In this document: in pieces, positions 7,525 through 26,407 of the stretch
Position numbering within the stretch: the stretch's first letter is position 1
How the letters are laid out: the number at the start of each line of letters is the position of its first letter
Source: an uncultured bacterium
GTDB lineage: Bacteria > Patescibacteriota > Minisyncoccia > Moranbacterales > UBA2206
Reading direction: 5' to 3'
DNA length: 64,000 bases
Assembly: GCA_903831805.1 (NCBI GenBank)
Contig: CAIKZD010000009.1
Location: forward strand, 217,939 to 281,938
Made by a program: the position numbers and the translations under genes
The notes under the pieces: model-generated
What the model saw: only the letters and a program-made list of their open reading frames with translations
What the model was told of the DNA's origin: nothing
The model's database searches: none

Positions 7525-7560
7525 AATTATTTTTATTAGAATTATAAAATTATCATTCTT

Positions 7561-8299: not shown

Positions 8300-8309
8300 T
8301 ATTATTACC

Positions 8310-10139
8310 CTATTTCTTCAACACCGACAAAAAGGCGGTCGAGGGGATGTTGACGCGGCCGATGGTTTTCATTTTCTTTTTGCCTTTTTTCTGTTTTTCC
8401 AAAAGTTTTCTTTTGCGAGTGATGTCGCCGCCATAGAGGCCGCTAGTCACATCTTTTCGGAAAGCTTTGATGGTTTCTCTGGCGATGATTTTGGCCCCGA
8501 TGGTGGCTTGCAGAGCGATTTGGAAATTTTGGCGCGGGATGACGTCTTTTAATTTTTCCACAATCCTTTTCCCTTCGCCGTGAGCGTTTTCACGCGGCAC
8601 GATACGCGAAAAAGCGTCCACTTTTTCATCCGCCACCAAGAAATCCAACTTGATGAGATCATAAGCACGATAATCTTCGATTTCATAATTCATCGAAGCA
8701 TAACCGGAAGAAGCACTTTTCAAATCGTCGTGCAAATTGGTCACCACATCAGTCAAGGGACAGCTGAATTTGATGATCATCCGTTCGGCGTCCAGATATT
8801 CCGTATCGCGATACTCAGCCCGGGTGTTGCCCATCACTTCCATGATAGCCCCCAGATAGGACGAGGGTGAGACAATTTCCAACTTGACGAACGGTTCATA
8901 CACTTCTTCAATGACTGATGGATCAGGAAACTCTGAGGGAGAATAGACTTTGATGCGGCCAGGTTTATCTTTGAGTTTGATTTCATATACCACGCTCGGT
9001 GAAGTGATGGTTGGGCTGATTTCAAATTCACGTTCCAAGCGAGATTGGATGATTTCTAAATGCAAGAGTCCCAAAAAGCCGCAACGAAAGCCGCGCCCCA
9101 AGGCCGTGTTAGATTCCGGTTCAAAAACAAAAGCGGCGTCATTTAATTTGAGCTTGTCTAAGGCGTCACGCATGAAATTGTAGTCATCCCCTTCCACCGG
9201 ATAGAAACTGGCATAGACCATCGGTTGCACTTCTTTGTAGCCTGGCAACGGCTCGACGACCGAGTTTTTAATTTTGAAATTAGTAATTGTGTCGCCCACT
9301 CGACAATGTTCCACGCTTTTTAGGCCCGTGGCAATGTAGCCGATTTCACCGGCGGTCAATTTTTCCGCTTTCACCAGCTGCGGCTTGAAATTGCCTACCT
9401 CAATCACATCACTATCAGTTTGGCCGATCATCATCCTGATTTTTTCGTCCGCCCCAATTTCGCCGTCAAAAATCCGCACATAAGCCAAGACTCCTTTATA
9501 TGTATCATATTTCGAATCAAAAATCAGAGCACGGAGAGGTTTGGCCGGATCACCGATGGGTGCCGGGATGATTTTCACAATTCTTTCCAAAAGTTCGGGA
9601 ACGCCCACGCCGGTCTTGCCGGACACTTCCAAAATTTCTTCTTCGGCGCAGCCCAGGAGATGCATGATTTCTTTTTTGACTTTCGGCGCATTGGCGTTGG
9701 GCAGATCGATTTTGTTCACCACTGGAATGATTTCCAAATTATGTTCCAAGGCTTGATAGAGATTGGCCAAGGTCTGTGCTTGCACACCTTTAGTGGCGTC
9801 CACCAGCAAAACCGCCCCGTCCACCGCCGCCAAAGAGCGCGACACTTCATAGCCAAAGTCCACATGTCCCGGCGTATCTATCAAATTGAGAATGTATTCC
9901 CCCTCCCCTGTATTCAGGGGAGGTGTCCCGTAATCGGGACGGAGGGGTTGATAATTCATGCGCACCGGCTGCATCTTAATAGTAATCCCCCGTTCTCGTT
10001 CCAAGTCCATGGTGTCCAGTAGCTGCTCTTTCATTTTGCGCGCCTCAACAGTGCCGGTCATTTCCAACATGCGGTCCGACAAAGTCGACTTACCATGATC
10101 GATATGCGCGATAATGCAAAAATTCCTGATGTTTTTCAT
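8310..10139 (-). CDS. lepA: elongation factor 4 (LepA) GTPase
   Basis: AHIDHGKST G1 motif, DTPGH and NKID motifs, and a LepA C-terminal domain. A repeat-derived loop insertion lies between G1 and G3. Confidence 0.95.
   Translation of the reverse strand: MKNIRNFCIIAHIDHGKSTLSDRMLEMTGTVEARKMKEQLLDTMDLERERGITIKMQPVRMNYQPLRPDYGTPPLNTGEGEYILNLIDTPGHVDFGYEVSRSLAAVDGAVLLVDATKGVQAQTLANLYQALEHNLEIIPVVNKIDLPNANAPKVKKEIMHLLGCAEEEILEVSGKTGVGVPELLERIVKIIPAPIGDPAKPLRALIFDSKYDTYKGVLAYVRIFDGEIGADEKIRMMIGQTDSDVIEVGNFKPQLVKAEKLTAGEIGYIATGLKSVEHCRVGDTITNFKIKNSVVEPLPGYKEVQPMVYASFYPVEGDDYNFMRDALDKLKLNDAAFVFEPESNTALGRGFRCGFLGLLHLEIIQSRLEREFEISPTITSPSVVYEIKLKDKPGRIKVYSPSEFPDPSVIEEVYEPFVKLEIVSPSSYLGAIMEVMGNTRAEYRDTEYLDAERMIIKFSCPLTDVVTNLHDDLKSASSGYASMNYEIEDYRAYDLIKLDFLVADEKVDAFSRIVPRENAHGEGKRIVEKLKDVIPRQNFQIALQATIGAKIIARETIKAFRKDVTSGLYGGDITRKRKLLEKQKKGKKKMKTIGRVNIPSTAFLSVLKK
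9899..9950. repeat. in-frame double-hairpin intragenic element (copy 1 of 3) inside lepA
   Basis: The sequence cctcccctgtattcaggggagg forms a 9-bp stem with a 4-nt loop, and gtcccgtaatcgggac forms a 6-bp stem. Together they encode PLRPDYGTPPLNTGEG. Related copies lie in valS and pheT. Confidence 0.6.
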
Positions 10140-10180
10140 AAATAATGACTCTTGTTATTTAGCCTATAAGCCATTCTAGC

Positions 10181-10209
10181 TTGATTGGACGAAAAAATCA
10201 ATCTATGGT
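10181..10209 (+). promoter_or_regulatory. sigma70-like promoter TTGATT-N17-TATGGT for the small two-gene cassette
   Basis: Hexamers and 17-bp spacing read directly from the sequence. About 75 nt leader before the first ATG. Confidence 0.35.
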
Positions 10210-10284
10210 AAGCTCGGAGCAAGAAAAAGAATAGATCTTTACCAAAGCAATTATCAGTTCACATTAAACCAGAGGGGTAAATTC

Positions 10285-10473
10285 ATGACCGGACAACAAC
10301 AAAAAGATAGGAGAAAGGCTCTCGAGGTATTGGATGCTCTGGAAAAAGAAGGTGCAGATGTTACAGCTCTCAGGGAGCTTATTGAAGAAAATGGTAAAGT
10401 AAACTATGGCATCAGTCCAGGACTTATACCATGCACTGCTTTCAATACCATGCTTGAAGATGATGATTACTAA
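10285..10473 (+). CDS. small acidic protein (62 aa)
   Basis: Strong SD (agagggg) 7 nt before the ATG. First gene of a compact promoter-to-terminator cassette. Confidence 0.45.
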   Translation: MTGQQQKDRRKALEVLDALEKEGADVTALRELIEENGKVNYGISPGLIPCTAFNTMLEDDDY

Positions 10474-10489
10474 CAAAGAGGAGGTAGCT

Positions 10490-10699
10490 ATGGATACAAG
10501 CACTTTAGTAATTACTGTTATTGTTATTGTTGTTGTTTGGTTTATTGCTGGGTATGCCGCTGCATGGGGAAGTATACCTGGAAAAGAAAACAATATTCAA
10601 TTGAACTGGAAAAATGTTAAACTTCTCGTCGGCGGGCCAATATCACTTACCTGTGTCGTTGTAAGTAGATTACTTGACATACTTCCAACCATTGATTAA
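10490..10699 (+). CDS. small single-TM membrane protein (69 aa)
   Basis: Near-consensus SD aagaggagg before the ATG at 10490. Translates to MDTSTLVITVIVIVVVWFIAGYAAAWG... The ORF track chose a longer upstream start. Confidence 0.45.
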   Translation: MDTSTLVITVIVIVVVWFIAGYAAAWGSIPGKENNIQLNWKNVKLLVGGPISLTCVVVSRLLDILPTID

Positions 10700-10707
10700 C
10701 CCTTCCC

Positions 10708-10752
10708 CCGGTCCCGGCTTGTATAACTCGCCGTGACCGGATTTTTTTTATT
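10708..10752 (+). terminator. rho-independent terminator
   Basis: GC-rich hairpin ccggtc...gaccgg followed by a run of eight T. Confidence 0.6.
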
Positions 10753-10810
10753 CAAGAAATACATTTCATCCTTAATCCTAAAAACCACAAAAGTCAAATG
10801 TCTACAGTTC

Positions 10811-12448
10811 TTATATTCCACTGATCTCACCTGTATCTTCTTCAAGAATAAGTTGTTTTTTGCGGAAAAGTCTCCTATTTAAAGATCCTTTCAAATAAAT
10901 ATATTCTTCCATTCTAAGCAGGTGTGCCACAAGAATAAAAACCGCCACGCCGGCCATCGAAGAAATAACCAATTGCGAAAAAACGCCGATAAATCTTTCC
11001 AGATCAACCAGGCCGGACATCAGATATTTGAAAAGTTGCACGGAGAGGCCCGCAAAAAAAGTAGCTGTGACAACTTTGCCAACGCTAATGATTATCCTGC
11101 GATCATCCAAATTTTCAAACTCCATGCGCAACGCAAAAAGCAAAAGAAACATCTGGACCACCGCAGCTAGAGAAAAAGCAATGGCCAAACTGAGAATCTG
11201 GTATTTTCCAATCAGAAGCACCACGGCCAAAATATTGACCCCCTCGCTGACGAGGGCGATATAGAAGGGCGTCTTAGTGTTGTGCATGGCATAGAAGGCC
11301 CGCGCCAAAAGCGGCGTCACACTCTGCGCGAAAAGACTGAGCGAAAAAATGCCAAGACATTGGAAAGTGAGAATGGTATCTTCCCAGTCGAATTTCCCCG
11401 CCCCAAAAACCACCCGCACGATTTGCGCTCGGAGCAAAAGCATCAGAACACTGATCGGAATGACGAAAAAAATAATTTGCCGGAAAGTTTCGGAAAAGGC
11501 ATTGATAAATTCTTCGTTTTTTTTCTGAGCAAACAAACTGGAAAGAGTTGGAAAAACGGCCATCGCGAAAGAAATTCCGACCAGCCCCAAGGGCACGCTT
11601 TGCAAATTTTGCGCCAAATTAAAAACGCCCAGTGATCCGGAGGCTAAGAGTGAGGCAAAAATTGTGATAACAAAAAGATTGATCTGATTGACTGCGATGC
11701 CCATGGTACGCGGAATCATTAAGGTGAAAACTTTGCGCACTTCTTGATTGGAAAAACTGGCCGCCAATGACCACTTATGTTTAAATCCCAGTTGACCGAC
11801 AAAAAGATATTGGGACATGAGATGCAAAAATCCCCCGAAAACCACGCCCCACGCCAGACCGATCGGTCCCATCATCCTGGCAAACACCAGAATGCCAAAA
11901 ATGATGCCGGCATTATAAAAAATCGGCGCCAAAGAATAGGTCAGAAAACGTTTATAAGAAGTTAGAATACCGCCAAGGATGCCACTAATACCTAGAAGCA
12001 AGGGGCTGAGAAACATGACTCGGGTGAAAACTACCAACTGTGCCAATTTGTCGGGCGAGAACCCGGGTGTGAGCGCTTTCATAATGAACGGAGTAAAAAT
12101 GGCAAAGGCAGCGGAGAGGACCACGATGAAACACAAAGCCAAATTCATAATACCATTCGCCATGTCCCACGCCTCTTCTTCTTTATCATTACTGAGCATC
12201 GCCGCAAACACCGGAATAAAAGCGGAAGAGAGCGCCCCCACAATAAGCAGATTGTAAATCAGATCCGGCACGCGAAAGGCAGCGTAGTAGACATCGAGTG
12301 TATCCCCTGCTCCAAAAGTAGAAGCCAGCAAACGATCACGAAAAAGTCCCAGCACTCGACTGACTAAGCCTGTCACAGTAATCAAAAACGCCGCCGAAAC
12401 AACCGAGCCGGAAATATGGTCATTGAGTTTTAGGATTTTTTTGATCAT
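10811..12448 (-). CDS. murJ: lipid II flippase MurJ
   Basis: 545-aa polytopic protein with MurJ/MviN N-terminal conserved residues (LFRDRLLASTFGAGDTLDVYYAAFRVPDLIYNLLIVGALSSAFIPVF). Confidence 0.85.
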   Translation of the reverse strand: MIKKILKLNDHISGSVVSAAFLITVTGLVSRVLGLFRDRLLASTFGAGDTLDVYYAAFRVPDLIYNLLIVGALSSAFIPVFAAMLSNDKEEEAWDMANGIMNLALCFIVVLSAAFAIFTPFIMKALTPGFSPDKLAQLVVFTRVMFLSPLLLGISGILGGILTSYKRFLTYSLAPIFYNAGIIFGILVFARMMGPIGLAWGVVFGGFLHLMSQYLFVGQLGFKHKWSLAASFSNQEVRKVFTLMIPRTMGIAVNQINLFVITIFASLLASGSLGVFNLAQNLQSVPLGLVGISFAMAVFPTLSSLFAQKKNEEFINAFSETFRQIIFFVIPISVLMLLLRAQIVRVVFGAGKFDWEDTILTFQCLGIFSLSLFAQSVTPLLARAFYAMHNTKTPFYIALVSEGVNILAVVLLIGKYQILSLAIAFSLAAVVQMFLLLFALRMEFENLDDRRIIISVGKVVTATFFAGLSVQLFKYLMSGLVDLERFIGVFSQLVISSMAGVAVFILVAHLLRMEEYIYLKGSLNRRLFRKKQLILEEDTGEISGI

Positions 12449-12452
12449 ACTA

Positions 12453-14825
12453 TTATTGCGTAAATGCTACTCCGATAAATTTGTCTGTTTTTAAATCAGT
12501 TTCCGTCCTGGCGCCCATTTCATTATTCGGCCCACTATCAGTGGGCAACATTTTGAGATCCGGCGATTGCCAAAGAGTTTTGTAGGTGGATGGATAATCG
12601 ATCTCACTGGAAAAACCGCTCCCCAGGCTGCCGGATTGTTTCTGCGCCAAGAGCGAATAAGTATCCGAGAGATGTAACGGATCCATGACTATTTTGAAAG
12701 GCAAGAGATAGGTATATTTAACGGTCACTGTTTCTTTCGGACTGACATAAACCCAATTGGCAAAAACAGTTTTTTCGCCGGTGGTATAAATTTTGGTTCC
12801 ACTCTCCGGATCGATTTGGGCCGCATCTTCTTCCGCTTGCACTTGCGGGTCACTGCTATACCCAAGTGCTTTGTAATCGAGCGGCGGAGCATCCACTTCG
12901 CGCGTCTGGCCTTCGGCGCTGAGCAGTTTCGCGCCTTTGGGCACATACACACGCAAATAATCAGCATTCACCTTGTTCCACCATTCATAAGGCGTATCTC
13001 CTCCATTATGATGACGAACAATCGTCAAGGTGTCAATGATACTGCCATCGGCTTGAATCTCGGCTTTATGCGTCAAGTGCTCATCAATCACCCCGTCAGT
13101 CTTAAAACCATTAATATTAGTGTTTATAACGCTCACATAATCTTTCGGAGTGTTTAACATTTCTCCCGACCAACCATTATCCGACAAGACCTGCTCAATC
13201 TCGGGATTCTTGGAATAGATCAAAATCTGTTTTTCATTAAGACTGGCCACTAGCACGTTTAGCGCCTGAGACATCTCAGAAAAACTTTTCATATTCAGTA
13301 TCTTATCCAGAATTTTGGGCGCCAGATCTCCCAAAATTTTCTTGGGATTATTCAATTCCTTATCATAATCCACTTCCACTTGATATTGGATTTCCTGGAT
13401 AAAATTATCCTTGTCGACTGTAATGCCATATTCCGGCATCTCAATCGGACCGGTCATCTCCAGCAGTTTTTGCATCACTGTCGGCGTCATAGTGACAACG
13501 CCGTCCACCGTGGGACCACCGGCTTTTTCATAGAACCAGGCCGCTTTTTCAGCGCTGGTGGGAAAATCCGGGAACCAGTTGGAGTCATGCAAGCTCCAAT
13601 TGGCGCTGATTTTTTGGATAGGCCCAGGTGGGATAATTTTAGTCCTGAGCTGCCCGTCCGGATTGAATATTCCGTCGATGAAAAACTTGCGCACTCGTCC
13701 GTTAAAAATATCCAAGAGGCCATAGCTACCGATGAAGCCGCCCGTCGCGCGGGCCTCCTGATTGTTTTGGAATAGGAACAAATATTTCCGCGGCCCATTG
13801 CCACCCAAAATGTCATTAAAGATTTTTTCTTGCCCCAAAAAAGCGGCGGCGGCCTGATTGACTTCCGGCAGCGCCTGTTTCATTTCCACAAATTGGCTCC
13901 TTTCGCTGCTCGGCACATCATCCACATTAACACTATTTAATTCCTTTTGCGCCGAAGCAAACAGCGCGGCGATCTGTTTGAGATGATCCTCATTGCCGCG
14001 GAAAAGACTGAGATATGAAATGGAATTACCTTGATCATTTCCCGTTTTTAGAGCGTCCATATTTTTGAGCATCCCCGCAGCCAAGATTCCAATCTGGGAA
14101 ATATCATTGCCGGCGGAAATGATGTGGCTACCGGAGGAAATTTTGGAGAGATAAGGCACGTATTTAGTCGCATTCACCAGGAGTTGCCCCATGTCATCAA
14201 ACTGACCAGACACTTGATCCAATTTTTCATGCGCGCTATTGAACTCGCCGTAAGCTTTCTCAAAATTGCCGCTTTTGATGCTGCCTTTGGCCGCTAAGAT
14301 TTCCCCCATCGCCGCCTCTGCGTTCGCGAGACCATTTTTCTTAATGGCCAATCCGCGGATGACAAAATTAGCCACTAACGCAATCGCTATGAAGGCGACG
14401 CCGAACTTCAAAAAAAGCACAGTTCTTCTTTTTTTTTCTTGCCCGGATAATGGACGTGTCTTTTCCAAGCGGAACGTTGGCGCGTTTTCCTCTTCTTCTG
14501 AATTTACGTTCTGATAATCGCGATCAGTTGCCTCAGCATAATTTCGACTGCCGCTGTTGGAAAAATCTTCCCATTGTTTCTTTTCCGCCTCCCTTTCTTC
14601 TCGCAGATATTTACTATAGCTAAACTCTTCCTGCTTTTTATCCGGTGGCTGTACTACGCCGCGAGTTGACATACCTCTTTCAACTGCATTGCTAACACCC
14701 TCCTCCACTTCCACAAGAGTCACAACTTTTTTCATTTTTTTGATTTTTTCCAGATCCAAATCACCCGCCTCATTGACCGGTCTGACATCGAACATTTGTG
14801 GTAATATTTTTTTTCGTTCTGTCAT
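12453..14825 (-). CDS. large membrane-anchored protein, DUF4012-like (recalled from memory)
   Basis: An N-terminal charged region, one TM helix and a roughly 600-aa extracytoplasmic domain (..YLFLFQNNQEARATGGFIGSYGLL..). It sits at the head of the glycosyltransferase cluster. Start taken at MTERKK.. to avoid overlap with the next gene. Confidence 0.45.
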   Translation of the reverse strand: MTERKKILPQMFDVRPVNEAGDLDLEKIKKMKKVVTLVEVEEGVSNAVERGMSTRGVVQPPDKKQEEFSYSKYLREEREAEKKQWEDFSNSGSRNYAEATDRDYQNVNSEEEENAPTFRLEKTRPLSGQEKKRRTVLFLKFGVAFIAIALVANFVIRGLAIKKNGLANAEAAMGEILAAKGSIKSGNFEKAYGEFNSAHEKLDQVSGQFDDMGQLLVNATKYVPYLSKISSGSHIISAGNDISQIGILAAGMLKNMDALKTGNDQGNSISYLSLFRGNEDHLKQIAALFASAQKELNSVNVDDVPSSERSQFVEMKQALPEVNQAAAAFLGQEKIFNDILGGNGPRKYLFLFQNNQEARATGGFIGSYGLLDIFNGRVRKFFIDGIFNPDGQLRTKIIPPGPIQKISANWSLHDSNWFPDFPTSAEKAAWFYEKAGGPTVDGVVTMTPTVMQKLLEMTGPIEMPEYGITVDKDNFIQEIQYQVEVDYDKELNNPKKILGDLAPKILDKILNMKSFSEMSQALNVLVASLNEKQILIYSKNPEIEQVLSDNGWSGEMLNTPKDYVSVINTNINGFKTDGVIDEHLTHKAEIQADGSIIDTLTIVRHHNGGDTPYEWWNKVNADYLRVYVPKGAKLLSAEGQTREVDAPPLDYKALGYSSDPQVQAEEDAAQIDPESGTKIYTTGEKTVFANWVYVSPKETVTVKYTYLLPFKIVMDPLHLSDTYSLLAQKQSGSLGSGFSSEIDYPSTYKTLWQSPDLKMLPTDSGPNNEMGARTETDLKTDKFIGVAFTQ

Positions 14826-15952
14826 CGCTTTCTTATTTTTCCATAAAGTTCCAACGTCTCCTCCGCCATTTTTTTCCAACTATACTTCTTAGCTTGTGCG
14901 TATCCTTTTTCAATCAAATCTTGGCGTAATTTTTCGTCCTTAAAAATATCGCGGAGAGCGCTTGCGATGCTTTCCACATTTTGACCGTCAAAATAGTAAG
15001 CACTGCTGCCCAAAATTTCCCGTGCACAAGCATAGTCCGAAGCCACCACCGGCGTCCCGCGCGACATCGCTTCCAGGGCCGGCAGTTCAAAGCCCTCATG
15101 CAAAGATGGCCGGACATATGCCAAAGCATTCCGGTACAGCGCGTCCAAATCATAATCCGGCACAAATCCGGCAAACACCACGTTACCGATGCCATTCTCT
15201 GCGACTAAATTTTTCAGTCTCGTATAAAAATAGTCTTCCCCGCCCACAAAAACCAATTCCACTTCTTTAGTTTCGGTTTCGATTTTTTTCATCGCTAGCA
15301 CCAACCGCTCCGGATTTTTGTGCGGATAGACGTTGCCCACATACAGGAAGAACGGCTTGGCGATCCCGTAGCGCGGCAAAATTTGTTCCTTGGCCCGAAA
15401 ATTGAACAAGCAATAATCGTCGCAAGCTTCATAAGTGACCACAATTTTCTCCTCGGGAATTCTGGGATAATTTCTAAGAATGTCCTTTTTGGTGAAACGC
15501 GAAACGGCAATGATGCGGTTCGAGCGATGGACCGCCGAACTGATGACCATCTTATAAGCCGTAAATTTCAACCAATACAGAATGGGCGACAAGGTAGAAC
15601 TTCGGATGGTTGGATAATTAAGCAATATCAAATCATGGATAGTCACGATAAATTTTCCGAAATAAAAAATCGGCACGTTGAAATGCGGAAAATGCGCCAG
15701 ATCCAATTTATATTTTTTCAAGAGCCGGGGGAATTTCAATTGTTCGGCAAAACCATACCATTTGAAATCCGCTAGCACTTTTTGAAAATTTTTGTTCTGT
15801 GGTACATATTCGTCAAAATTTTCTTTTTTCAAGAAGATAAAATACTGATTCTCACGATCGGTTTTTTCCAAATTTTCTATTAGTTTTTGCGTATACCGCC
15901 CCAGCCCCTTCCCAATCGGGCCATAAAAACGCGCATCAATCCCTATTCGCAT
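14822..15952 (-). CDS. glycosyltransferase family 4
   Basis: C-terminal EX7E region (EGFELPALEAMSRGTPVVASD). Confidence 0.8.
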   Translation of the reverse strand: MRIGIDARFYGPIGKGLGRYTQKLIENLEKTDRENQYFIFLKKENFDEYVPQNKNFQKVLADFKWYGFAEQLKFPRLLKKYKLDLAHFPHFNVPIFYFGKFIVTIHDLILLNYPTIRSSTLSPILYWLKFTAYKMVISSAVHRSNRIIAVSRFTKKDILRNYPRIPEEKIVVTYEACDDYCLFNFRAKEQILPRYGIAKPFFLYVGNVYPHKNPERLVLAMKKIETETKEVELVFVGGEDYFYTRLKNLVAENGIGNVVFAGFVPDYDLDALYRNALAYVRPSLHEGFELPALEAMSRGTPVVASDYACAREILGSSAYYFDGQNVESIASALRDIFKDEKLRQDLIEKGYAQAKKYSWKKMAEETLELYGKIRKR

Positions 15953-16043
15953 AATGGCTGATTTTTATATTTACGCTTCCATCCATAACCGCCTCTAGCT
16001 GATTTAATTATACCAAAAAGTCAAGTTTATGGACAGCCAAAAA

Positions 16044-16098
16044 AACAGAGACGCAAAAAAGTAGAGACGCAGCATTGCTGCGTCTCTATTTTTTTGGT
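16044..16098. terminator. palindromic hairpin agagacgcagca-t-tgctgcgtctct followed by a T-run; second copy at 30087
   Basis: 12-bp perfect stem at 16064..16088 followed by atttttttgg. Fits as terminator for the minus-strand GT4 gene. Confidence 0.5.
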
Positions 16099-16109
16099 TA
16101 TGCTATTTC

Positions 16110-17273
16110 TTACAAAGAATTAAACACTTTCAACGTTTTTCGCGCGGTGACCATCCAATCAAATTCCTTGGCTTTCTCCAAACCTTTTTTTGCCAGTGTT
16201 TCTCGCAATTCGTGATCAGTGAGGGCTTCCCGCATGGCGCGGTAGAGTTCATCGGGTTTGTCGGGGTCGACCAGGATGGCTGCGTCGCCGACCACTTCCG
16301 GGAGCGACGAATTATTGCTGGTGATGACCGGCACACCGCATTTCATAGCTTCCAAGGGCGGAAAACCGAATCCTTCAAAAAAAGACGGATAGACAAAAAG
16401 CGCCGATAGATTATACAGATACGGCTTGGCTTCGTTGGGGATAGCATGAATCACTTTAATTTTTTTGCGGTAAGGAGAATTTTCAATTTCAGAGAAAGTT
16501 GTTGCCGCGTTCCAGCCTGACTCGCCCACAATCACCAGCTCATATTTCAAAAGATCCTGACGAGAAGCCGCTGAGGCATATTCTTGTAAAGCGTTATAAG
16601 CCCGCACCGTCCCAATGATATTTTTTCTCGGCTCAATCGTACCGAGGATCAAAATGAAATGATAGGGCAAGGCATATTCTTCCTTTGTCTTGATCAGCTG
16701 CGCATCGTTCCGGTCGATAATCTTAAAATTATGGCCCACCGCGCTATGAATGATTTCAATTTTTTCTTTGCCTATGCCATAAAGACTGACCAGATCATGC
16801 GCAGTCGATTGCGAAACAGCGATAAGTTTTTGCGCCGAGCGACAGATGTTTTTGGTGTTTATGAACATGTGCCACCATTTTCTTTTATAGGAAAAATATT
16901 CGCTATGGCGCTCGAAAGAAAGATCATGCACCGTCAGCACTAATTTCGCTTTCTGGCTCACCGCGCCAAAGATAATATTGGGCATAAAAACCACGTCAGC
17001 ATTCCCGCATAATTGATCGATTTTTGGCCAAGCTAAATACCAAAAAGCCAGATTAAGCAGCTTGTTAGGAATTTTCAATCTTTTTAGACTGACATTTTTA
17101 TAGTCGGCAAAAATCCCGAAATCAAAATTCGGTTCCTTCCAAGAGTTTAGAAAAAGAATATACTCATTTTTGCGGTCCAACTTGAACAAGCTCTGCAAAA
17201 GTCCGAGCGTGTATTCCTCCACCCCGGTGCGTCTTCCCTCCATCAGGCATCTGACATCGATTGCAATCTTCAT
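16110..17273 (-). CDS. glycosyltransferase family 4
   Basis: [20 protein letters not shown] motif. Confidence 0.8.
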
Positions 17274-17300
17274 ATGTTGATCAGTATTTCTGCTGAGCTG

Positions 17301-17906: not shown

Positions 17907-18068
17907 ATTTTTTAAATTTCAAAATCTAAATTTCAAATTTCAAATCAATTTCCAATGACAAATTTCAAATTTTTGTCATTTGAATTTTAGATTTTATTTG
18001 ACATTTGTAATTTGAAATTTGTAATTTTTTCATACCTCATTCTTTGCACAAAGTCATTTAACCACACT
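17907..18068. repeat. AT-rich imperfect palindrome / short tandem motifs (aatttcaaat family)
   Basis: aaatttcaaatttcaaat ... atttgaaatttgtaatt arms centred near 17975, upstream of the wzz-like gene. Confidence 0.4.
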
Positions 18069-19172: not shown

Positions 19173-19233
19173 ATAACTCCATTATACCAAAAAACCGCCC
19201 AAAAGGCGATTTTAAGGAAACTTTCAAAAAATA

Positions 19234-20649
19234 CTATAAATTGCGTCTTTTTCGAAACAGTACCCCGACAGTCTTCAAACAAATTTGAATGTCGAGCCAC
19301 AAAGACCAGTTCTCAATGTAATACAAATCAAGTCGATATTCATCTTCAAAATCCAGATCCGAGCGGCCGGAAATCTGCGCCATGCCGGTCACGCCGGGTT
19401 TGATAGTGAGAAGTCGACGGTGATATTCCATATATTTTTCCACTTCCCTTTTCTGGTGTGGCCGCGGGCCCACCAAGCTCATCGAACCGAACAACACATT
19501 GAAAAATTGCGGCAGTTCATCGATGGAATATTTCTCAATGAATCTGCCTACCCGCGTCTTTCGCGGGTCGTCTTTGATTTTGTAGAGCGGACCCCTCCTA
19601 ACACTTTGCTTATCAATCAATTCTTTTTCATATTTCAAAGCGTCTTGCAAATTTGGGTTTTTCTTAGAAATGCAAAATTCATTCTTGAAATAGCGAAATT
19701 TATACACAAAAATCTTCTTACCGTTGTCGCCGATGCGTTCATTCTTGTAGATGATTGGGCCTTCACTGTCTAAATTGATTGCCAGCGCTGTGGCAAGCAT
19801 GATCGGCGAAGTGATGATGATGCCGCAGATCGAAGCGATGATATCAAAAACCCGTTTCAAAATCCGGCCCCAACCTTCCAAAGGTGTGTTTCTCACCTCG
19901 ATGATCGGCTCGCCGGAGAGGACGCCCAAAGTGAATTTGGAAGTTTGCAACGTAGTGGGGATATATTTAAATTCAATATTATTAATAGCGGAATAGTCGA
20001 TCAATTTTTCTTGCTCGGCGTCCGTGATCATCGGGTCGCACAAAATGATTTCGTCAATGCCTTTTTCTTTTTGAATGCCTTTAATTATGTGCGGACTAGC
20101 CGTTTCAATTTGATCGATGACGCGATATCCCATGTTCGGAGTCTGGCTGATGATTTTGGAAATTTTGTCCATCTTGCCATTCCGACCGATCAAAAGAATT
20201 TTGTGCACCCCGATGCCGCGCGTCCTCAAAAGCCATTTTTGGATGAGCTGGATCAAATAGCGCGCCATGACGATATAGAAAGTGCCCAGCATCCAAGCGG
20301 ACAAAATGACAAAGCGCGAAGAAAACCATTCCCGTTTCAAAAATATCGCCACGATGACAATCACCAACCCGATGGAAGTGGCGGAAAAAATCTTCAACAC
20401 TTCTTTCCAAAATTTGCGCGTAGAGCGGATGTCATACAAGCCTTCAATGGCATAGATGATGATGAAAATCGGTGCCACCATCAGAATAATTTTGATATAG
20501 CTATGGAAAGGGAAAGTGTAGAGTTTGGGTTTCAACGCCAAAATTTCCGGCACATTCCGGATAGTATAGGCTGAAACCGCCGCCAAGACCAACATCAAAA
20601 AATCAACGGGGACTTGGATGGCGCTAAAAAATAATTCTGATTTTTTCAT
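19234..20649 (-). CDS. undecaprenyl-phosphate sugar phosphotransferase (WbaP/WcaJ-type initiating transferase)
   Basis: N-terminal TM bundle and C-terminal bacterial sugar transferase domain (DELPQFFNVLFGSMSLVGPRP). Confidence 0.85.
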   Translation of the reverse strand: MKKSELFFSAIQVPVDFLMLVLAAVSAYTIRNVPEILALKPKLYTFPFHSYIKIILMVAPIFIIIYAIEGLYDIRSTRKFWKEVLKIFSATSIGLVIVIVAIFLKREWFSSRFVILSAWMLGTFYIVMARYLIQLIQKWLLRTRGIGVHKILLIGRNGKMDKISKIISQTPNMGYRVIDQIETASPHIIKGIQKEKGIDEIILCDPMITDAEQEKLIDYSAINNIEFKYIPTTLQTSKFTLGVLSGEPIIEVRNTPLEGWGRILKRVFDIIASICGIIITSPIMLATALAINLDSEGPIIYKNERIGDNGKKIFVYKFRYFKNEFCISKKNPNLQDALKYEKELIDKQSVRRGPLYKIKDDPRKTRVGRFIEKYSIDELPQFFNVLFGSMSLVGPRPHQKREVEKYMEYHRRLLTIKPGVTGMAQISGRSDLDFEDEYRLDLYYIENWSLWLDIQICLKTVGVLFRKRRNL

Positions 20650-20666
20650 ATTTTAATCATTTATCA

Positions 20667-21022
20667 AGGTAAATCTATAAGCCGGATTCTGTCGAGCCTG
20701 CCTCATCGGCAGACAAGAATAGTCATTTATCTAGCTCCATAATTACTCATGGAGTCATGCGGCACTTTCTGTAATTACGTAAATTACAGAACACGGCCTT
20801 GCACTCACGTAGGGATTTAGCCGTTTCACTTCTTATGTTTCCATAAGAACTTATCCCGAAGGATATTCTTATTATTGCTAATAAGAACGTCTCTGCTCGC
20901 ACCCCGCAAATTACTTTGGATGGGAATTACCCACTACGCTTTCCGCCTTGCGACGAAAAAGTGTCCGGACTTTCCTCCCCAACATTACTGCCAGGGCAAC
21001 TATTCGATTTACCTTGATAAAT
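20667..21022 (-). ncRNA. rnpB: RNase P RNA (bacterial type A)
   Basis: The minus strand contains GGAGGAAAGTCCGGAC (P4 5' strand) and ACAGAATCCGGCTTA (P4 3' strand). The termini caaggtaaatc / gatttaccttg form an 11-bp P1 helix. Length about 355 nt with no ORF. Confidence 0.8.
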
Positions 21023-21246
21023 AACTAAAAACACAACTTCAGGTACGATGCTCAATTATACTCCCTTTTTAGGCTTTTGTCAAAGGTAAATTAGGTTTAT
21101 TGCTTAAAATAAAGCTTTTTTATCATAATATTCACACCCCCACCTTGCCTGATATTAGCATAATTCATACAAACTGTAAAATAAAAAATAGCCGGACATG
21201 CTCAACGCGTCAGACTATTTTCTCCTGATACTTATCTTATTCGTTC

Positions 21247-23973
21247 TTATCCCAAATTCCCCAACAATTCTTTCTGTCCTTCCAGCTTTTCTTGATATTC
21301 TTTCAGTCTGGATTTATTCTGCGCCACAATTTCTTTCGGCGCGCTGGCGGTGAATTTTTTGTTGGCCAAAAGTCCCTCTGTGTTTGAAACTAATTTTGTT
21401 AGATTTTCGATTTCTTTTTGCAATCTGACTTTTTCTTTTTCCGTGTCGATCAGTTCCGCAATGTCTATTCCTAGATCGGATATCTTTACCAAAGATTTTC
21501 CTACGGAGGCTAACCCTCCAATTGGAGGTTTAGCCTCCAATATTTTCACCCGCGCTAGCTTCTCGATGATGCCCTGGTTAGCGACTTTTCCGTAAGCCGT
21601 AATGACACGCACCGGATCAATCTTATAACTCGAACGCAAATTCCTAATCTGACCGACAGTTTTTTGCAGCTTCTCAAATTCTTTCTCAGATTTTTTATCA
21701 ATTAGTTTCTTGTCACTCACTGGCCATTTAGAAACCATCAGAAGATCAAGGTTCGACCTTTGGCGCGCCAAAGGTCGAACCTTTGGAGACATTTTATCCG
21801 CCGATGAGGCGGGCATATCGGTCCATATTTTTTCCGTCACGAACGGCGCGAACGGATGGGTCAGTTTCAAAATCTTGTCCAAGACATAGCCCAGCACTTT
21901 TTCATTCTTTTCAATCTTGTTCGTTTCCAAGTACCAATCCGCCAGATCATTCCAGATGAAGTTTTGCAGCTTCTCTCCCGCCAAGGAAAATTTATATCCC
22001 TCCAGATCATTGGTCAGTCCAGCAATTAGGATATTCGACTTGCTCACAATCCACTTGTCGGCCAAGGTCTTGATGTCTTTCGGGTTTATTTTTTCCACCA
22101 GCTGCATGTCCGGATGAGTCGTGGCCGCATAGCGGTAGATGTTCCAGAGTTTAGTCACAAAATTGCGGAAAGATTCAATTTTTTCTTCCGAGATCCGCAC
22201 ATCGTTGCCTGGGGTGGAACCAATAAGCAACGCCAAGCGTACGGCGTCCGTGCCGAATTTTTCAATCATGTCCAAGGGATCAATGCCATTGCCTTTCGAC
22301 TTAGACATTTTCTTGCCGAACTTGTCCAAAACCATGCCGTGCAGATAAACATTTTCAAATGGAATTTCTCCCACCGCAAACAGTGACATCATGATCATGC
22401 GCGACACCCAGAGTGTAATAATTTCATAACCGGTTTCCAGCACTTGCGTCGGATGGAATTTTTTCAAGTCACCCGATTTTTCATTCTTCTTGAAATTATT
22501 AGGCCAACCCAAAGTCGAGAATGTCCACATCCCGGAAGAAAACCAAGTATCGAGCGTGTCTGGATCTTGCGTCCAACCCTTCCCCACCGGAGGATTATCC
22601 CCAACGTAAACTTCCTCCCCTGTACGGAGGGGCTTTACCCCCTCTCCTGTATTCAGGAGAGGGCTGGGGTGAGGTTCTGAACTCCGATACCACACCGGAA
22701 TCTCATGCCCGAACCAGATTTGTCTTGAGATGCACCAATCATGCAAATTTTCCATCCAATCGGTATAGCGTTTAGCGAAACGGAGCGGAATGAACTGAAT
22801 TTTTTTCTGCTTGGCCACTTCCAAAGCCTTTTCTTTCAAAGATTTATTGCCTAGACGTTTCAGTTTTTTGTCCACCGCCACAAACCACTGCTTCGACGGC
22901 AATGGTTCCACGGCGGTGCCGCAACGATAGCAAGTCGACAAATTATTCTCCATCTCTTCTTCTTTTTCCAAAAGACCTGCCTTTTTTAATTCGGAAACGA
23001 CTAGCTCGCGCGCTTCTAGCGCCGTGCGACCACTAAACTGGCCGAAATTATTTTTAATCTTACCATCCTCGTCGATGACTTTCACGATTGGAAGCGCATT
23101 TTTTTCCGCCATCTGCCAGTCCACCATGGAATGCGCCGGGGTCACGCCGAGCGCACCGGTGCCAAAATCTTTTTCCACGTTGCGATCAGCGATGATTTTT
23201 ATTTTCAAAGGTACGCCGAAAAAGTCCACCTCAATTATTTGACCGATGAATTTTTTGTATCTTTCATCTTTCGGGTTCACCGCCACCGCCGTGTCCCCTA
23301 GTTTGGTTTCCGGCCGCGTGGTAGCGATAGCAATCGGAAAGTTTTTAGCATATTTAAAAGTGTAAAGTTTGGTCTTTTGGTTTTCATATTCCAACTCATC
23401 ATCCGCCAAAGTCGAATGGCAGCGCGGACACCAATTCACAATTCTTTCTCCGCGATAAATTACGCCTTCGTTGTACATATCGATAAACATCTTTTTGACC
23501 GCCACTTTTCTTTCTTCATCCATCGTAAAAGCTTCGCGCGACCAATCCAGCGATGCCCCCATTTTCCTGGTCTGGCCCAGAATAGTTTTTTGCGTCACGT
23601 GCAAAAATTTCCAAATCTCTTCCAAAAATTTTTTCCGTCCCAAATCATGCCTGGTTTTCCCGGTTTCTTTCAGAAGTTTTCTCTCCACTACATTATGCGT
23701 CGCAATGGCCGCATGATCCGTCCCTGGCAGCCACAGTGTCCGATAGCCTTTCATCCGATGGAAGCGGATGAGCAGATCCTGGATGGCCAACATCGAAGAA
23801 TGACCGAGATGCAATTTATCGGTGATATTAGGCGGCGGCAAAATAATCGTATACGGCTTGGCATTCTTCGGCAATTTCAAATTATCCGGGTTGAAAAAAC
23901 CGCTCTTTTCCCAAAGCTTATAAATCTTGTCCTCGTATTTTTTTGGTTCGTACGTTTTTGGAATTTCGCGCAT
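21247..23973 (-). CDS. valS: valyl-tRNA synthetase
   Basis: HLGH (HIGH-class) and KMSKS motifs, 908 aa, C-terminal coiled coil. Contains two in-frame repeat insertions. Confidence 0.95.
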   Translation of the reverse strand: MREIPKTYEPKKYEDKIYKLWEKSGFFNPDNLKLPKNAKPYTIILPPPNITDKLHLGHSSMLAIQDLLIRFHRMKGYRTLWLPGTDHAAIATHNVVERKLLKETGKTRHDLGRKKFLEEIWKFLHVTQKTILGQTRKMGASLDWSREAFTMDEERKVAVKKMFIDMYNEGVIYRGERIVNWCPRCHSTLADDELEYENQKTKLYTFKYAKNFPIAIATTRPETKLGDTAVAVNPKDERYKKFIGQIIEVDFFGVPLKIKIIADRNVEKDFGTGALGVTPAHSMVDWQMAEKNALPIVKVIDEDGKIKNNFGQFSGRTALEARELVVSELKKAGLLEKEEEMENNLSTCYRCGTAVEPLPSKQWFVAVDKKLKRLGNKSLKEKALEVAKQKKIQFIPLRFAKRYTDWMENLHDWCISRQIWFGHEIPVWYRSSEPHPSPLLNTGEGVKPLRTGEEVYVGDNPPVGKGWTQDPDTLDTWFSSGMWTFSTLGWPNNFKKNEKSGDLKKFHPTQVLETGYEIITLWVSRMIMMSLFAVGEIPFENVYLHGMVLDKFGKKMSKSKGNGIDPLDMIEKFGTDAVRLALLIGSTPGNDVRISEEKIESFRNFVTKLWNIYRYAATTHPDMQLVEKINPKDIKTLADKWIVSKSNILIAGLTNDLEGYKFSLAGEKLQNFIWNDLADWYLETNKIEKNEKVLGYVLDKILKLTHPFAPFVTEKIWTDMPASSADKMSPKVRPLARQRSNLDLLMVSKWPVSDKKLIDKKSEKEFEKLQKTVGQIRNLRSSYKIDPVRVITAYGKVANQGIIEKLARVKILEAKPPIGGLASVGKSLVKISDLGIDIAELIDTEKEKVRLQKEIENLTKLVSNTEGLLANKKFTASAPKEIVAQNKSRLKEYQEKLEGQKELLGNLG
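21748..21783. repeat. perfect 36-bp palindrome in-frame within valS linker
   Basis: aaggttcgacctttggcgcgccaaaggtcgaacctt equals its own reverse complement. It encodes KVRPLARQRSNL. Confidence 0.6.
22611..22670. repeat. in-frame double-hairpin intragenic element (copy 2 of 3) inside valS
   Basis: cccctctcctgtattcaggagaggg and cctcccctgtacggagggg encode SPLLNTGEGVKPLRTGEE. The modules are in swapped order relative to the lepA/pheT copies. Confidence 0.6.
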
Positions 23974-23974
23974 A

Positions 23975-26407
23975 TTATTTTCTCACTTCCACCTTCAACT
24001 CTTTCTCTAAGCTTGAAATTATTTTTTCCATCACCTTTTCCACTTCAACGCTTTCCAAGGTTTTGTCTTTGGCAGCGAGAGTGATCCGGATGGCTAAACT
24101 CTGCTTGGCTTTGAAAAAGTCAAACAGTGAAACACTGTCAATCAATTGTCCACCGATTTTTTTGGTCAGTTTCTCGATTTCACCATACGTCACAGTTTCT
24201 GGCACGATCATGGAGATGTCGCGCGTGAGCGAAGGAAATTTGTTGATGGGGTGATATTTTTTAGTTTTCGGCAACACTGCCAATAGTTTCTCCAGATCAA
24301 TTTCTGCCATAGCGACACGCTTGGTGATTTTATATTTAGCTAAAACCGCCGGATTCACTTCGCTGATCATGCCGACCGCGTGATTATATATTTTCACTTC
24401 GGCCACGCGTCCCGGATGCGCCACGGCGGATTTAGTTTCTGCGAAAGAAACTGCCACACCTTTTATGCCTAAACTTTCCAGCAGATTTTCAACTGCGCTC
24501 TTCATGCTATAGAAAGAATCTGCGTCTTTGTCTTTTTCCAGAACAGACGCCGCTACCAACATTCTTTTTTCTTCCGCCTGATTATTCTGCGGATAATAGA
24601 CTCGGCCAATTTCAAATAGATTAAAACTTTCAAAATGTTTAAGATTTTGACGGACGTTTTTCAGAAGGTTCGGAATGAGACTGGCGCGCACCAACTCTTG
24701 GTCCGGATTCATCGGATTGGCAATTTCATAATGTTTGATACCGCCTAGTCCGCAAATTTCTGCGTCGCGATTAGAATAGAAAGAATAGTTATACATTTCA
24801 TCAAACCCAAAATTGGCCAGCGTATTTTTCAGCTGACGTTCGAAAAACACTTGCTCATTTTTCTTGGCCGGTTCCACCGGTTCCAACAGCGCTTGCGGCT
24901 GGATTTTTTCATAGCCGCGCAGACGGCCGATTTCTTCGATCAAATCTTCTTGCGTCTTCAAATCAATCCGATAAGTCGGAATTTCACATACTACTTTATT
25001 CGGCTGAACGGTTGGGTGGATGTTTATACTGTTTAATATTTTAACAATTTCTTTCTGCGTAACATTTTCACCTAAAAGACTATTTACATATTCCAAATCT
25101 AATTTAATTTTCCACGGCTTGATCTTGTTCGGATAAATATCGACAACTCCTTCCAGTTTCGCATTGGCGGTGTGTTCCAAGATTTCGATAATTCTGACCA
25201 TGGCCTTTTCTGCTAAGTTTGGATCAATATCTTTTTCAAATCGATCGGACGATTCAGTCTTAATATTTAGCCTACTTCTGGATTTACGGATATTTATAGC
25301 ATGAAAATTAGCCGCTTCCAAGACAATGGTTTTCGTATTTTCATTGATGCCGGAATCTTTTCCACCCATAATCCCTGCCAACGCCAAGGGTGTTTCGCCA
25401 TTAGTGATCAGCAGATCATTCTCGTCTAAAATTATTTCGCTATCATCCAACAAAACTAGCTTTTCTTTATCCTTAGCTCTCCTAACTACAATTTCCGTTT
25501 TTTTGTTTTTATGATTTTGGATTTGTTCCGCATCAAAAGCGTGCATCGGTTGCCCGAGTTCCAGCATCACATAATTGGTCGCATCCACGACATTGTTAAT
25601 GGCTTTGATGCCGCAAGTTTTCAATCGATCTTGCATCCACTCCGGCGACGGTTTGATCTCAACATTCTCCATCACGGTGCCGATGTAACGCGGACATAGT
25701 TTCTTGTCTTTGATCACTACGGATAATTTTTTGGATTTTTTAGCCGACAATTTTAATTCGTCGAAATCATAATCAAATTTTTTGCCTTCCAACGCCGCCA
25801 TTTCCCGCGCCACGCCCACATGACTCATCGCATCATGTGCCCGGTCCGGCAAAACTTTGATTTCAAAAACCGTATCCGCCTCGCCAAAATATTGTGCCAA
25901 TGGTTGACCGACTTTAGCAGATTTATCTAAGATGAGAATTCCGCTATGATCCTCGCCCAGTCCCAGTTCATCCTTGGCGCAGAGCATCCCGAATGATTTT
26001 TCGCCGCGAATTTCAGTGGCTTTGATTTCTGTTCCATTTGGCAATTTAGCACCGACAAGTGCCACTGGCACTTTTTGGCCAACTGCAATATTGGGCGCGC
26101 CACAGACAATCAAAAGTCCATCCTTATCACCCTCTCCTGTACTCAGGGGAGGTGTCCCGTACCCGGTACGGAGGGGTTGTGCGCCGCCTACGTCCACCCT
26201 CGCAATCTGTAATTTATCCGCGTTCGGATGCTTTTTGACTTCCAAAATTTTCCCGACCGCCACACCTTCAAACTCTTGGCCGGCTTTTTCCAAACCTTCC
26301 AATTCAAAAGCATGCATCGTCAAAACATCCGCCGCCTTTTCCGGTGACAGTTTTGTGCCTGATAATTCTTTGAGCCAATTATAGCTATATTTCATATTTT
26401 TAATCAA
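23975..26407 (-). CDS. pheT: phenylalanyl-tRNA synthetase beta subunit
   Basis: 810 aa with a canonical PheT N-terminus (MKYSYNWLKEL), tRNA-binding, B3/B4 and FDX-ACB domains. Confidence 0.95.
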   Translation of the reverse strand: MIKNMKYSYNWLKELSGTKLSPEKAADVLTMHAFELEGLEKAGQEFEGVAVGKILEVKKHPNADKLQIARVDVGGAQPLRTGYGTPPLSTGEGDKDGLLIVCGAPNIAVGQKVPVALVGAKLPNGTEIKATEIRGEKSFGMLCAKDELGLGEDHSGILILDKSAKVGQPLAQYFGEADTVFEIKVLPDRAHDAMSHVGVAREMAALEGKKFDYDFDELKLSAKKSKKLSVVIKDKKLCPRYIGTVMENVEIKPSPEWMQDRLKTCGIKAINNVVDATNYVMLELGQPMHAFDAEQIQNHKNKKTEIVVRRAKDKEKLVLLDDSEIILDENDLLITNGETPLALAGIMGGKDSGINENTKTIVLEAANFHAINIRKSRSRLNIKTESSDRFEKDIDPNLAEKAMVRIIEILEHTANAKLEGVVDIYPNKIKPWKIKLDLEYVNSLLGENVTQKEIVKILNSINIHPTVQPNKVVCEIPTYRIDLKTQEDLIEEIGRLRGYEKIQPQALLEPVEPAKKNEQVFFERQLKNTLANFGFDEMYNYSFYSNRDAEICGLGGIKHYEIANPMNPDQELVRASLIPNLLKNVRQNLKHFESFNLFEIGRVYYPQNNQAEEKRMLVAASVLEKDKDADSFYSMKSAVENLLESLGIKGVAVSFAETKSAVAHPGRVAEVKIYNHAVGMISEVNPAVLAKYKITKRVAMAEIDLEKLLAVLPKTKKYHPINKFPSLTRDISMIVPETVTYGEIEKLTKKIGGQLIDSVSLFDFFKAKQSLAIRITLAAKDKTLESVEVEKVMEKIISSLEKELKVEVRK
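26128..26180. repeat. in-frame double-hairpin intragenic element (copy 3 of 3) inside pheT
   Basis: caccctctcctgtactcaggggaggtgtcccgtacccggtacggaggggttg encodes QPLRTGYGTPPLSTGEGDK. It is a clean roughly 17-aa insertion relative to the canonical ..VGG....L.IVCGAPN.. region. Confidence 0.6.

Follow-up and report, generated by a model that had tools for sequence, protein, structure and literature searches.

The 64,000-nt stretch of DNA analysed here (hereafter the window; contig CAIKZD010000009.1, positions 217,939 to 281,938, from an uncultured Moranbacterales bacterium) carries a short palindromic repeat inside three genes for translation proteins, lepA, valS and pheT. We consider it likely that each of the three sites holds a copy of a dispersed, non-autonomous repeat, GC-rich and 39-53 nt long, of the BoxC/PIT or 'triplex-motif' (TM) type, which landed in these genes, was kept in stop-free frames and tolerant surface turns, and is translated together with its hosts. 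In the mechanism that we propose, copies would land more or less anywhere and selection would keep the harmless ones. The comparisons show that the surviving copies are confined to the four stop-free frames and to tolerant turns between secondary-structure elements, and that over the time in which species diverge, copies come, are overwritten, decay and disappear. The resulting peptide would be a Pro/Gly-rich loop, probably disordered and without a function of its own.

The host genes encode elongation factor 4 (lepA, 8310-10139), valyl-tRNA synthetase (valS, 21247-23973, with two insertion sites) and the phenylalanyl-tRNA synthetase beta chain (pheT, 23975-26407). All three are long minus-strand open reading frames (ORFs) in which the copy lies in frame and without a stop, being read as QPLRPDYGTPPLNTGEGE in LepA, EPHPSPLLNTGEGVKPLRTGEE in ValS and QPLRTGYGTPPLSTGEGD in PheT. 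Three occurrences of the core CCTCYCCTGTAYTCAGGRGAGG were counted in the window, compared with 0.00 expected from 100 shuffles, and the GC content of the element is ~65-70%, compared with 30-49% across the window. The original prediction of three copies in these genes, each inside an ORF and compatible in length with its frame, is therefore borne out by the sequence, the ORFs and the core count.

Two of the copies belong to a long form (type A) of 52-53 nt. The lepA copy (9899-9950, minus strand) is translated as QPLRPDYGTPPLNTGEG, and its coding strand reads CAA-CCCCTCC-GTCCCG-ATTA-CGGGAC-A-CCTCCCCTG-AATA-CAGGGGAGG-GGG. The pheT copy (26128-26179, minus strand; translated as QPLRTGYGTPPLSTGEG) is partly decayed, with one mismatch in hairpin 1 and with hairpin 2 changed to GTACCGGGTACGGGAC. 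Aligned over 53 nt (9898-9950 and 26127-26179), the two are 89% identical, and their flanks are unrelated. The copy in valS (22638-22676, minus strand) belongs to a short form (type B) of ~39 nt, which is translated as EPHPSPLLNTGEG and reads CCCCCTCTCCTG-TATT-CAGGAGAGGG-CT-GGGGTGAGG on the plus strand. Next to it, at 22614-22632 (minus strand), lies a 19-nt remnant of an older long-form copy (CCTCCCCTGTACGGAGGGG on the plus strand), translated as PLRTGE. The valS site had been described as the same two hairpin modules in swapped order, a description that we abandon: there is no second-hairpin module at this site, which holds the short-form copy and the older remnant instead.

By design, the element is a hairpin with one arm of pyrimidines and one of purines, followed by a third segment in which the purine arm is mirrored. 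The homopyrimidine and homopurine arms are CCTCCCCTG/CAGGGGAGG in lepA and CCCTCTCCTG/CAGGAGAGGG in valS, and the third segment is GGAGGGG in lepA and pheT or GGGGTGAGG in valS. Thus the G-rich strand of the lepA copy reads CCTCCCCTG-TATT-CAGGGGAGG-[T GTCCCG-TAAT-CGGGAC]-GGAGGGG, where GGGGAGG followed by GGAGGGG makes a perfect mirror, as it does in pheT. The G-rich strand of the valS copy reads CCCTCTCCTG-TATT-CAGGAGAGGG-CT-GGGGTGAGG, in which GGAGAGGG is followed by GGGGTGAGG, the pattern of the E. coli TM repeats (TMECO). The linker between the hairpin and the third segment is CT in the short form and a 17-nt second hairpin in the long form. Accordingly, valS carries a plain TM repeat, and the lepA and pheT copies are a variant whose linker has turned into a second hairpin. 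Each copy had earlier been taken to consist of two hairpin modules. The lepA copy does fold in that way, but the third segment had been missed and the valS copy has one hairpin.

In E. coli, the BoxC/PIT/TM motif forms a triplex in vitro, is 'always located intergenically', is unlinked to transposases and is tied to local indels (Holder et al. 2015, PMC4666352). The present element shares its G/C-rich hairpin of homopyrimidine and homopurine arms followed by a G-rich third segment mirroring the purine arm, and it is likewise multi-copy, dispersed, free of an associated mobility gene and accompanied by local indels. The likeness extends to the sequence itself: the valS copy CCCTCTCCTGTATTCAGGAGAGGGCTGGGGTGAGG and TMECO no. 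1 CCCTCTCCCTGTGGGAGAGGGCCGGGGTGAGGGC (PMC4666352, Table 1) are identical in 27 of 39 aligned columns, and the valS purine arm and reversed third strand (GGAGAGGG, GGAGTGGGG) match the TMECO pattern (GGGAGAGGG, GGGAGTGGGG), including the T opposite A. However, whereas the E. coli motif is always intergenic, all 13 strict copies found here are inside ORFs and in frame. The TMECO linker has 2-3 nt, compared with the 17-nt second hairpin of the long form, which falls outside the 1-6 nt loop of the ITxF definition, and the host in our case is a bacterium of ~43% GC from the candidate phyla radiation (CPR).

Folded as single-stranded DNA, the lepA copy forms two adjacent hairpins (dG -18.9 kcal/mol, z -5.3) and the valS copy one strong hairpin (z -3.4), while the decayed pheT copy reaches a z of only -1.2. 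The arms of hairpin 2 vary in sequence among copies with complementarity kept (GTCCCG/CGGGAC, GTCACG/CGTGAC, CTCCGACG/CGTCGGAG and GTCCCGACG/CGTCGAGAC); these compensatory changes were read directly from the sequences, and indels misalign the loop. On the G-rich strand of the lepA copy in L126, A-to-G changes stand at mirrored positions in the purine arm and the third strand. Together, these anecdotal cases fit a structure that may matter to the element. A long-form sub-variant has a hairpin 2 that is longer by 3 bp per arm (CCGACG-ATTA-CGTCGG); it occurs in L136 (7353-7414) and L137, in both near residue 463 of pheT, and in L132 (2806-2869), and its symmetric 6-nt growth preserves both the palindrome and the reading frame. 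No RNA family in Rfam matches the element.

The kept complementarity of hairpin 2 and the mirrored changes in L126, as well as the repeated occupation of the same loops described below, would also suit hairpins that are kept for a use at the level of the nucleic acid, such as pausing the ribosome so that the protein folds co-translationally, stabilising the mRNA or providing hot spots of recombination, with the peptide as a tolerated side effect. We think this improbable, since the closest relatives manage without the inserts, copies decay (as in pheT), unrelated GC-rich and AT-rich families sit in the same loops, and the TM/PIT motifs of E. coli showed no promoter or terminator activity (PMC4666352).

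The orthologs support the reading as an inserted repeat, and several of them have an empty site. In the closest LepA ortholog (P0002, 93% identical), only K-E stands between VRM-Y and YILNLIDTPGH. At the DNA level, the window has TAT CAA [CCCCTCC...GGAGGGG] GAA TAC where L122 has TAC AAA GAA TAT, a difference of exactly 48 nt, and the 2-residue loop is found in 38 of 119 LepA orthologs. The insert is common to P0003 and P0004 (90% and 89% identical), and P0003 carries point changes within it, as expected under vertical descent. Since P0003 and P0004 are filled and the closer P0002 is empty, the closest relative has either lost its copy or acquired an empty allele through recombination.

At the valS site, P0243 and P0244 have a full long-form copy (QPL[RC]PDYGTPPL[RS]TGEG), P0242 and the window have a short-form copy followed by the remnant, and an empty site with the sequence WYKGEEIYVG is seen in P0245 and the orthologs after it (80% identity or less). 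A DNA comparison of the window with L137, L136 and L135 showed homology between the remnant and the 3' part of the long-form copy in P0243 and P0244. We also considered the remnant as a 27-nt slippage deletion between GTAC repeats, which was ruled out because the ortholog DNA showed that the remnant corresponds to the older copy's hairpin-1 region in its altered state. The three states of this one site (full long form, short form with remnant, and empty) are evidence of turnover. The pheT insert is found in none of the 120 best orthologs. In the two closest of them (L137 and L136), the same site holds a different repeat, a GTAG-tagged repetitive extragenic palindrome (REP) read as V-E-T-R-F-I-A-S, and in L135 it is empty. 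Near residue 463 of pheT the relation is reversed, with a long-form copy in the sister genomes and none in the window.

From these alignments, the insertions are real and recent rather than ancient loops, and the earlier interpretation thus withstands the comparison, with K-E in P0002, empty valS sites from P0245 onward and no pheT insert in 120 orthologs. This bears directly on the rival view that the peptides are ancient conserved loops, convergent Pro/Gly linkers selected at the protein level, or assembly artefacts. That view could call on the common orientation and frame of the copies in the three window genes and on their similar peptides. It is already contradicted by the ortholog and frame data and has almost no probability left in our estimate: orthologs exist without the inserts, elsewhere this DNA is found in four different reading frames, and nucleotide identity is 89-100% across the element with unrelated flanks. 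The best matches of LepA, PheT and ValS come from metagenome-assembled genomes (MAGs) of Candidatus Moranbacteria and Parcubacteria (CPR), and the LepA and ValS protein sequences were found unchanged on 10 and 12 independent contigs, respectively, from JGI, ENA and NCBI assemblies (the longest of 294.5 kb), which excludes an assembly artefact.

Further copies of the repeat turned up in related genomes. The 25-nt junction between the two hairpins matched 7 loci in a metagenome collection, all of them inside ORFs. Five come from one metagenome (Ga0172380), where near-identical 53-nt copies (ACAACCCCTCCGTCCCGATTACGGGACACCTCCCCTGAGTACAGGGGAGGGGG) with sharp, shared ends (CAACCCCTCC...GGAGGGGG) sit in PriA-like, LepA, FemAB-like, UvrB and PurM/HypE-like genes; the sixth lies in a TilS-like gene of another metagenome, and the seventh is the lepA copy of P0003. 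The short form (AACCCCTCCCCAGCCCTCCCCTGAGTACAGGGGAGGGGG) was found by a profile search on L132, where a HypF-like gene holds 3 or 4 antisense copies that are read as PLPCTQGRAGEG or PSPVLRGGLGRG; it is also present in a gene for a CCA-adding enzyme on L021. Copies beyond the window, which a dispersed repeat should have, are thus present in at least six other genes of related Parcubacteria and Moranbacteria genomes. The three translation genes first named as hosts are confirmed, but they are not special, because DNA-repair and cell-wall genes also host copies.

The reading frames of these copies follow a simple rule. Direct reading of the sequence shows four of the six frames open, with a TGA in sense frame 1 and a TAA in antisense frame 1. 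Of 13 strict copies, counted over the window and the loci related to it, none occupies a stop-containing frame, for which the probability under random framing is (2/3)^13, or ~0.005. The long form is in sense orientation in all 8 cases and uses two frames (QPLRPDYGTPPLSTGEG and TTPPSRLRDTSPEYRGGG), the copies at the metagenome junction loci mostly being read in the other frame, TTPPSRLRDTSPEYRGGG. The short form has 2 sense and 3 antisense copies, the latter again in two frames (PLPCTQGRAGEG and PSPVLRGGLGRG). Such a distribution is what purifying selection on translated inserts predicts, and the stop-free use of several frames in different genes speaks for a dispersed repeat at the DNA level that is apparently translated. 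Moreover, since every host ORF is open through and beyond its copy, each net insertion must be a multiple of three.

The frames also bear on the idea that the segments are removed before the protein works, by translational bypassing, splicing or excision at the protein level, in which case the frame would be irrelevant. Such things occur in nature: in yeast mitochondria, GC-rich mobile hairpin inserts are bypassed by the ribosome, and the rRNA genes of CPR bacteria contain insertions that are excised. These two parallels are the only points in favour of removal. Against it stand the absence of any of the 13 copies from stop-containing frames and host ORFs open throughout, which matter only if the insert is translated, together with a length of 17 residues, far too short for an intein, and the absence of an Rfam family match. 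As the 0/13 count argues against removal at the RNA or the protein level, we regard this idea as very remote.

If translated, the inserts should occupy positions that the fold tolerates. Compared with the Aquifex and E. coli structures, LepA has ~11 extra residues in the beta-hairpin loop before DTPGH. Its AlphaFold model (mean predicted local distance difference test score, pLDDT, 66.7) places the insert in a coil at 64-81, between the strands 59-63 and 82-88, with pLDDT <50 at 70-79. In the model of ValS (mean pLDDT 79), the composite insert is likewise a coil (432-452) between two strands (427-431 and 453-457), with pLDDT <50 at 433-452; the lepA insert and the first valS insert therefore both lie between two beta-strands. 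The second valS site carries a perfect 36-nt palindrome of an unrelated repeat family (AAGGTTCGACCTTTGGCGCGCCAAAGGTCGAACCTT, 21748-21783, minus strand), which has a 16-bp stem and is in frame as KVRPLARQRSNL. It is predicted to be a coil with pLDDT <50 at residues 724-741, after the helix 710-719. In PheT, the HMMER alignment to the E. coli protein is split at the insert, query residues 1-73 matching 1-73 and 94-154 matching 75-135, so that an unmatched stretch of 20 residues is flanked by E. coli residues 73 and 75, within the N-terminal tRNA-binding (OB-fold) domain, PF01588. According to the alignments to PDB structures and the two AlphaFold models, all four inserts lie in low-confidence coils between well-predicted secondary-structure elements, in agreement with the surface-loop location proposed at first for lepA and pheT.

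The valS palindrome at 21748-21783 is without a counterpart in most orthologs and is found in P0245 and P0268; its behaviour is the same as that of the studied element, although it belongs to a different family. The neighbouring PASSADKM is an insertion too, relative to L136.

How the repeat spreads is suggested by its orientation. The C-rich form lies on the strand of positive GC skew in 8 of 8 informative loci, including the antisense copies in the oppositely oriented L132 gene. This constant orientation relative to the local strand skew, together with the lack of a clear target-site duplication, points to a single-strand, replication-linked process, which could be driven by a trans-acting enzyme of the HUH type, similar to the REP-associated tyrosine transposases (RAYT) or IS200-like transposases, or by template switching at forks stalled by the structure. 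T(T/C)CA, which stands 5' of 5 of the 9 distinct insertion sites, may represent a target or the end of the element, and the junction ends are CA...CA at 3 of 7 junctions. A purine-rich target 'AAAGA' was considered and rejected: although the three empty sites have it, its frequency in coding DNA is high (0.005 per nt), and the pheT-463 site is without it.

Several points weigh against our interpretation of the three sites as a mobile, translated repeat. There is no transposase among the 53 window ORFs (50 scanned with Pfam plus lepA, valS and pheT), and the one recombinase among them, a tyrosine integrase, belongs to an unrelated defence island. No consistent target-site duplication and no agreed element ends were found at 8 junctions, and the net insert lengths differ by site (48, 54 and 60 nt). 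The skew of short loci largely reflects gene orientation, and the strand bias comes mainly from one L132 gene hit in antisense; it is a lead only. At a coding density of 89%, 13 of 13 intragenic copies are no enrichment (p ~0.2), and the copy number is low, with 7 loci carrying the exact junction in the metagenome collection. The viral contigs scanned contained no copy and gave no sign of a phage origin. Finally, translation is a step that we infer from the frame statistics only, and 'selfish' mobility is what we infer with no mobilising enzyme in the window ORFs.

Some of these points would suit a process in which the repeats are by-products of replication and repair: stable hairpin or triplex DNA stalls forks, and gene conversion or template switching copies the repeat to another site. 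The element would then be no selfish transposon but a mutational side effect. No transposase was seen among the window ORFs examined and no target-site duplication at the junctions, mobility genes were not found around the TM repeats studied by Holder et al., who linked these repeats to local instability and slippage deletions, the different variants at one valS site in sister genomes look like conversion or overwriting, and the arms of hairpin 2 change together (GTCCCG/CGGGAC, GTCACG/CGTGAC and CTCCGACG/CGTCGGAG). However, the near-identical 53-nt copies with shared sharp ends in five unrelated genes of one genome look like discrete insertions, and T(T/C)CA in front of 5 of 9 sites suggests a defined end or target. 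We therefore hold a pure by-product to be unlikely, though the most serious of the alternatives, and continue to favour a dispersed repeat that inserts and is filtered by selection.

The occupied loops are also used by other repeats. Loops at least 8 residues longer than the modal length occur in 46 of 119 LepA, 47 of 89 ValS and 16 of 97 PheT orthologs, and among the sequences found in the same loops of relatives are the TM-like (S/E)PHPNPLLxKERE, TSPQPSPYKGEG, the GTAG-REP peptide ETRxxAS, AIHESPL, the AT-rich ISNxxFQISN... and PASAKASAG. For the lepA and valS loops, other repeat families are present in 39-53% of the orthologs. When 19 orthologous proteins of the window and its close relatives were compared, they differed by 14 indels of at least 6 residues, and at least 9 of these indels are recognisable repeat families.

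In the window itself, the GTAG-REP and the AT-rich repeat are confined to intergenic DNA. The former (GTAGAGACGCAGCAyTGCTGCGTCTCTAC, GTAGAGACGC...GCGTCTCTAC) has two intergenic copies, at 16058-16088 and 30086-30118, which show 97% complementarity; in the pheT loop of L136 and L137, a member of this family is translated as VETRFIAS, and ~22 of 97 PheT orthologs carry the family in that loop. The latter is represented by an inverted repeat between two genes at 17914-18034, with 49-nt arms that are 76% complementary, and repeats of this kind are translated as ISNxxFQISN... in the LepA, ValS, FemAB-like and HypF-like proteins of relatives.

A wider proposal, which we put forward tentatively and think rather less likely to be right than wrong, is that four or five or more families of REP-sized palindromes (TM A/B, GTAG-REP ETRxxAS, ISNxxFQISN, PASAKASAG and KVRPLARQRSNL) remodel the proteins of Moranbacteria and Parcubacteria on a large scale, repeatedly colonising the same few surface turns of essential proteins in an orientation that follows the replication strand and not the gene.

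The behaviour of the element was originally compared with that of the Rickettsia palindromic elements (RPE), which are ~150 bp long (the criterion being about 100-150 bp) and occur in Rickettsia (reviewed in PMC10969869). The two are alike in being palindromic, in lying in frame in unrelated and often essential genes whose orthologs may be without a copy, in choosing sites tolerated by the fold, and in having no transposase of their own. The comparison holds as far as behaviour goes (in frame, absent from orthologs, in tolerated loops, with a stable hairpin), but the element is not an RPE by size, phylum or design: it has 39-53 nt instead of ~150 bp, is found in Patescibacteria rather than Rickettsia and follows the triplex-motif plan, differences by which its description sets it apart.

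REP-sized palindromes with GTAG/CGTC tags are known inside genes as well, including repair and replication genes of other phyla (Di Nocera et al. 2013, PMC3733652), and UvrB and PriA are hosts here too. In contrast to those palindromes, the studied element has no GTAG tag and no tag on hairpin 1, and the intragenic position is the rule here and the exception there; CGTC occurs in the long form only at the base of hairpin 2 (C-CGTCCCGATTACGGGAC-A), where the stem end is unpaired. A RAYT (HUH Y1 transposase) was not found in the 50 Pfam-scanned ORFs of the 64-kb window.

The window copies also differ from REPINs in that they are single and form no inverted doublets, whereas Planctomycetota relatives do form doublets ~98 nt apart. 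In Planctomycetota MAGs (L003-L121, e.g. Humisphaera DATBDZ01), the repeat CCCCTCACCCC-N3-CCCTCTCCCCTGAGTACAGGGGAGAGGG is present in great numbers, often in such inverted doublets or in tandem arrays, and its TM design and hairpin loop are nearly those of the CPR element. A contig scan with the 20-nt hairpin-1 pattern returned mostly Planctomycetota REP-like repeats that share the hairpin, with two Parcubacteria loci among the matches listed.

[quoted passage not shown] They resemble the element as small non-autonomous repeats with inverted ends and possible in-frame fusions, and the element contains a 7-nt inverted pair, CCCCTCC/GGAGGGG. Yet MITEs usually have 100-300 bp, a target-site duplication and a recognisable parent insertion sequence, none of which was found here. 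In the literature searched, there is no report of REP, MITE or TM repeats in coding genes of CPR/Patescibacteria, which is not proof of their absence.

The interest of these observations lies mainly in the tie of TM repeats to coding sequence, in the scale of loop colonisation in Moranbacteria and in the strand bias. RPE-like colonisation of essential genes is not confined to Rickettsia and extends to the CPR, by a very widespread BoxC/TM design that was thought to be strictly intergenic. The inserts account for part of the odd variation in length by which CPR housekeeping proteins differ between lineages, since repeats make up most of the indels of at least 6 residues between the close orthologs compared here, and they are a systematic hazard for alignments, homology models, phylogenomics and the annotation of CPR proteins. 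At the same time, the occupied sites mark insertion-tolerant loops in LepA, ValRS and PheRS, and the spread of triplex-motif repeats could be studied on the near-identical copies of one MAG with their strand bias. Should the tentative proposal of large-scale remodelling be true, the CPR would be the first natural system for dissecting the so far unexplained spread of BoxC/TM repeats, and the repeats would supply CPR proteins in general with lineage-specific loops.

Further features were noted near lepA. An 85-nt direct repeat, 94% identical between its copies (7551-7635 and 8300-8384), duplicates the 3' end of lepA around a segment of ~660 nt. In the identical locus L001, this segment holds a nucleotidyltransferase/HepT-like toxin-antitoxin pair, and L122 and L124 are without the pair; the segment looks like a cassette inserted with duplication of the lepA end. 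Upstream of lepA in L124, a pair resembling a diversity-generating retroelement (bAvd and a reverse transcriptase, 2353-3801) lies among glycosyltransferase genes, and it is not at that place in the window.

A defence island of low GC content (30-39%) at 40200-59300 splits the usual prfA-prmC pair (prfA, 38731-39828; prmC, 60188-61138). It contains KilA-N, a Pycsar system (PycTM effector and cyclase), a type I restriction-modification system (hsdS, hsdM and hsdR), DUF6119, DUF4357, and an AlwI-type endonuclease with two D12 methylases, one of them fused to RadC, and is accompanied by a tyrosine recombinase at 59342-60178. Intergenic cassettes of ~200 nt occur in the island three times (40375-41533, 50526-50737 and 52234-52444), with a further pair at 49046-49156 and 59083-59241. 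The D1 cassette unit is a long AT-rich hairpin whose loop carries GGGCAGAGGGGTTAGGGGTGAATGCCC, resembling the third-strand part of TM repeats. An RNase P RNA of bacterial class A lies at 20662-21015 on the minus strand (135.6 bits).

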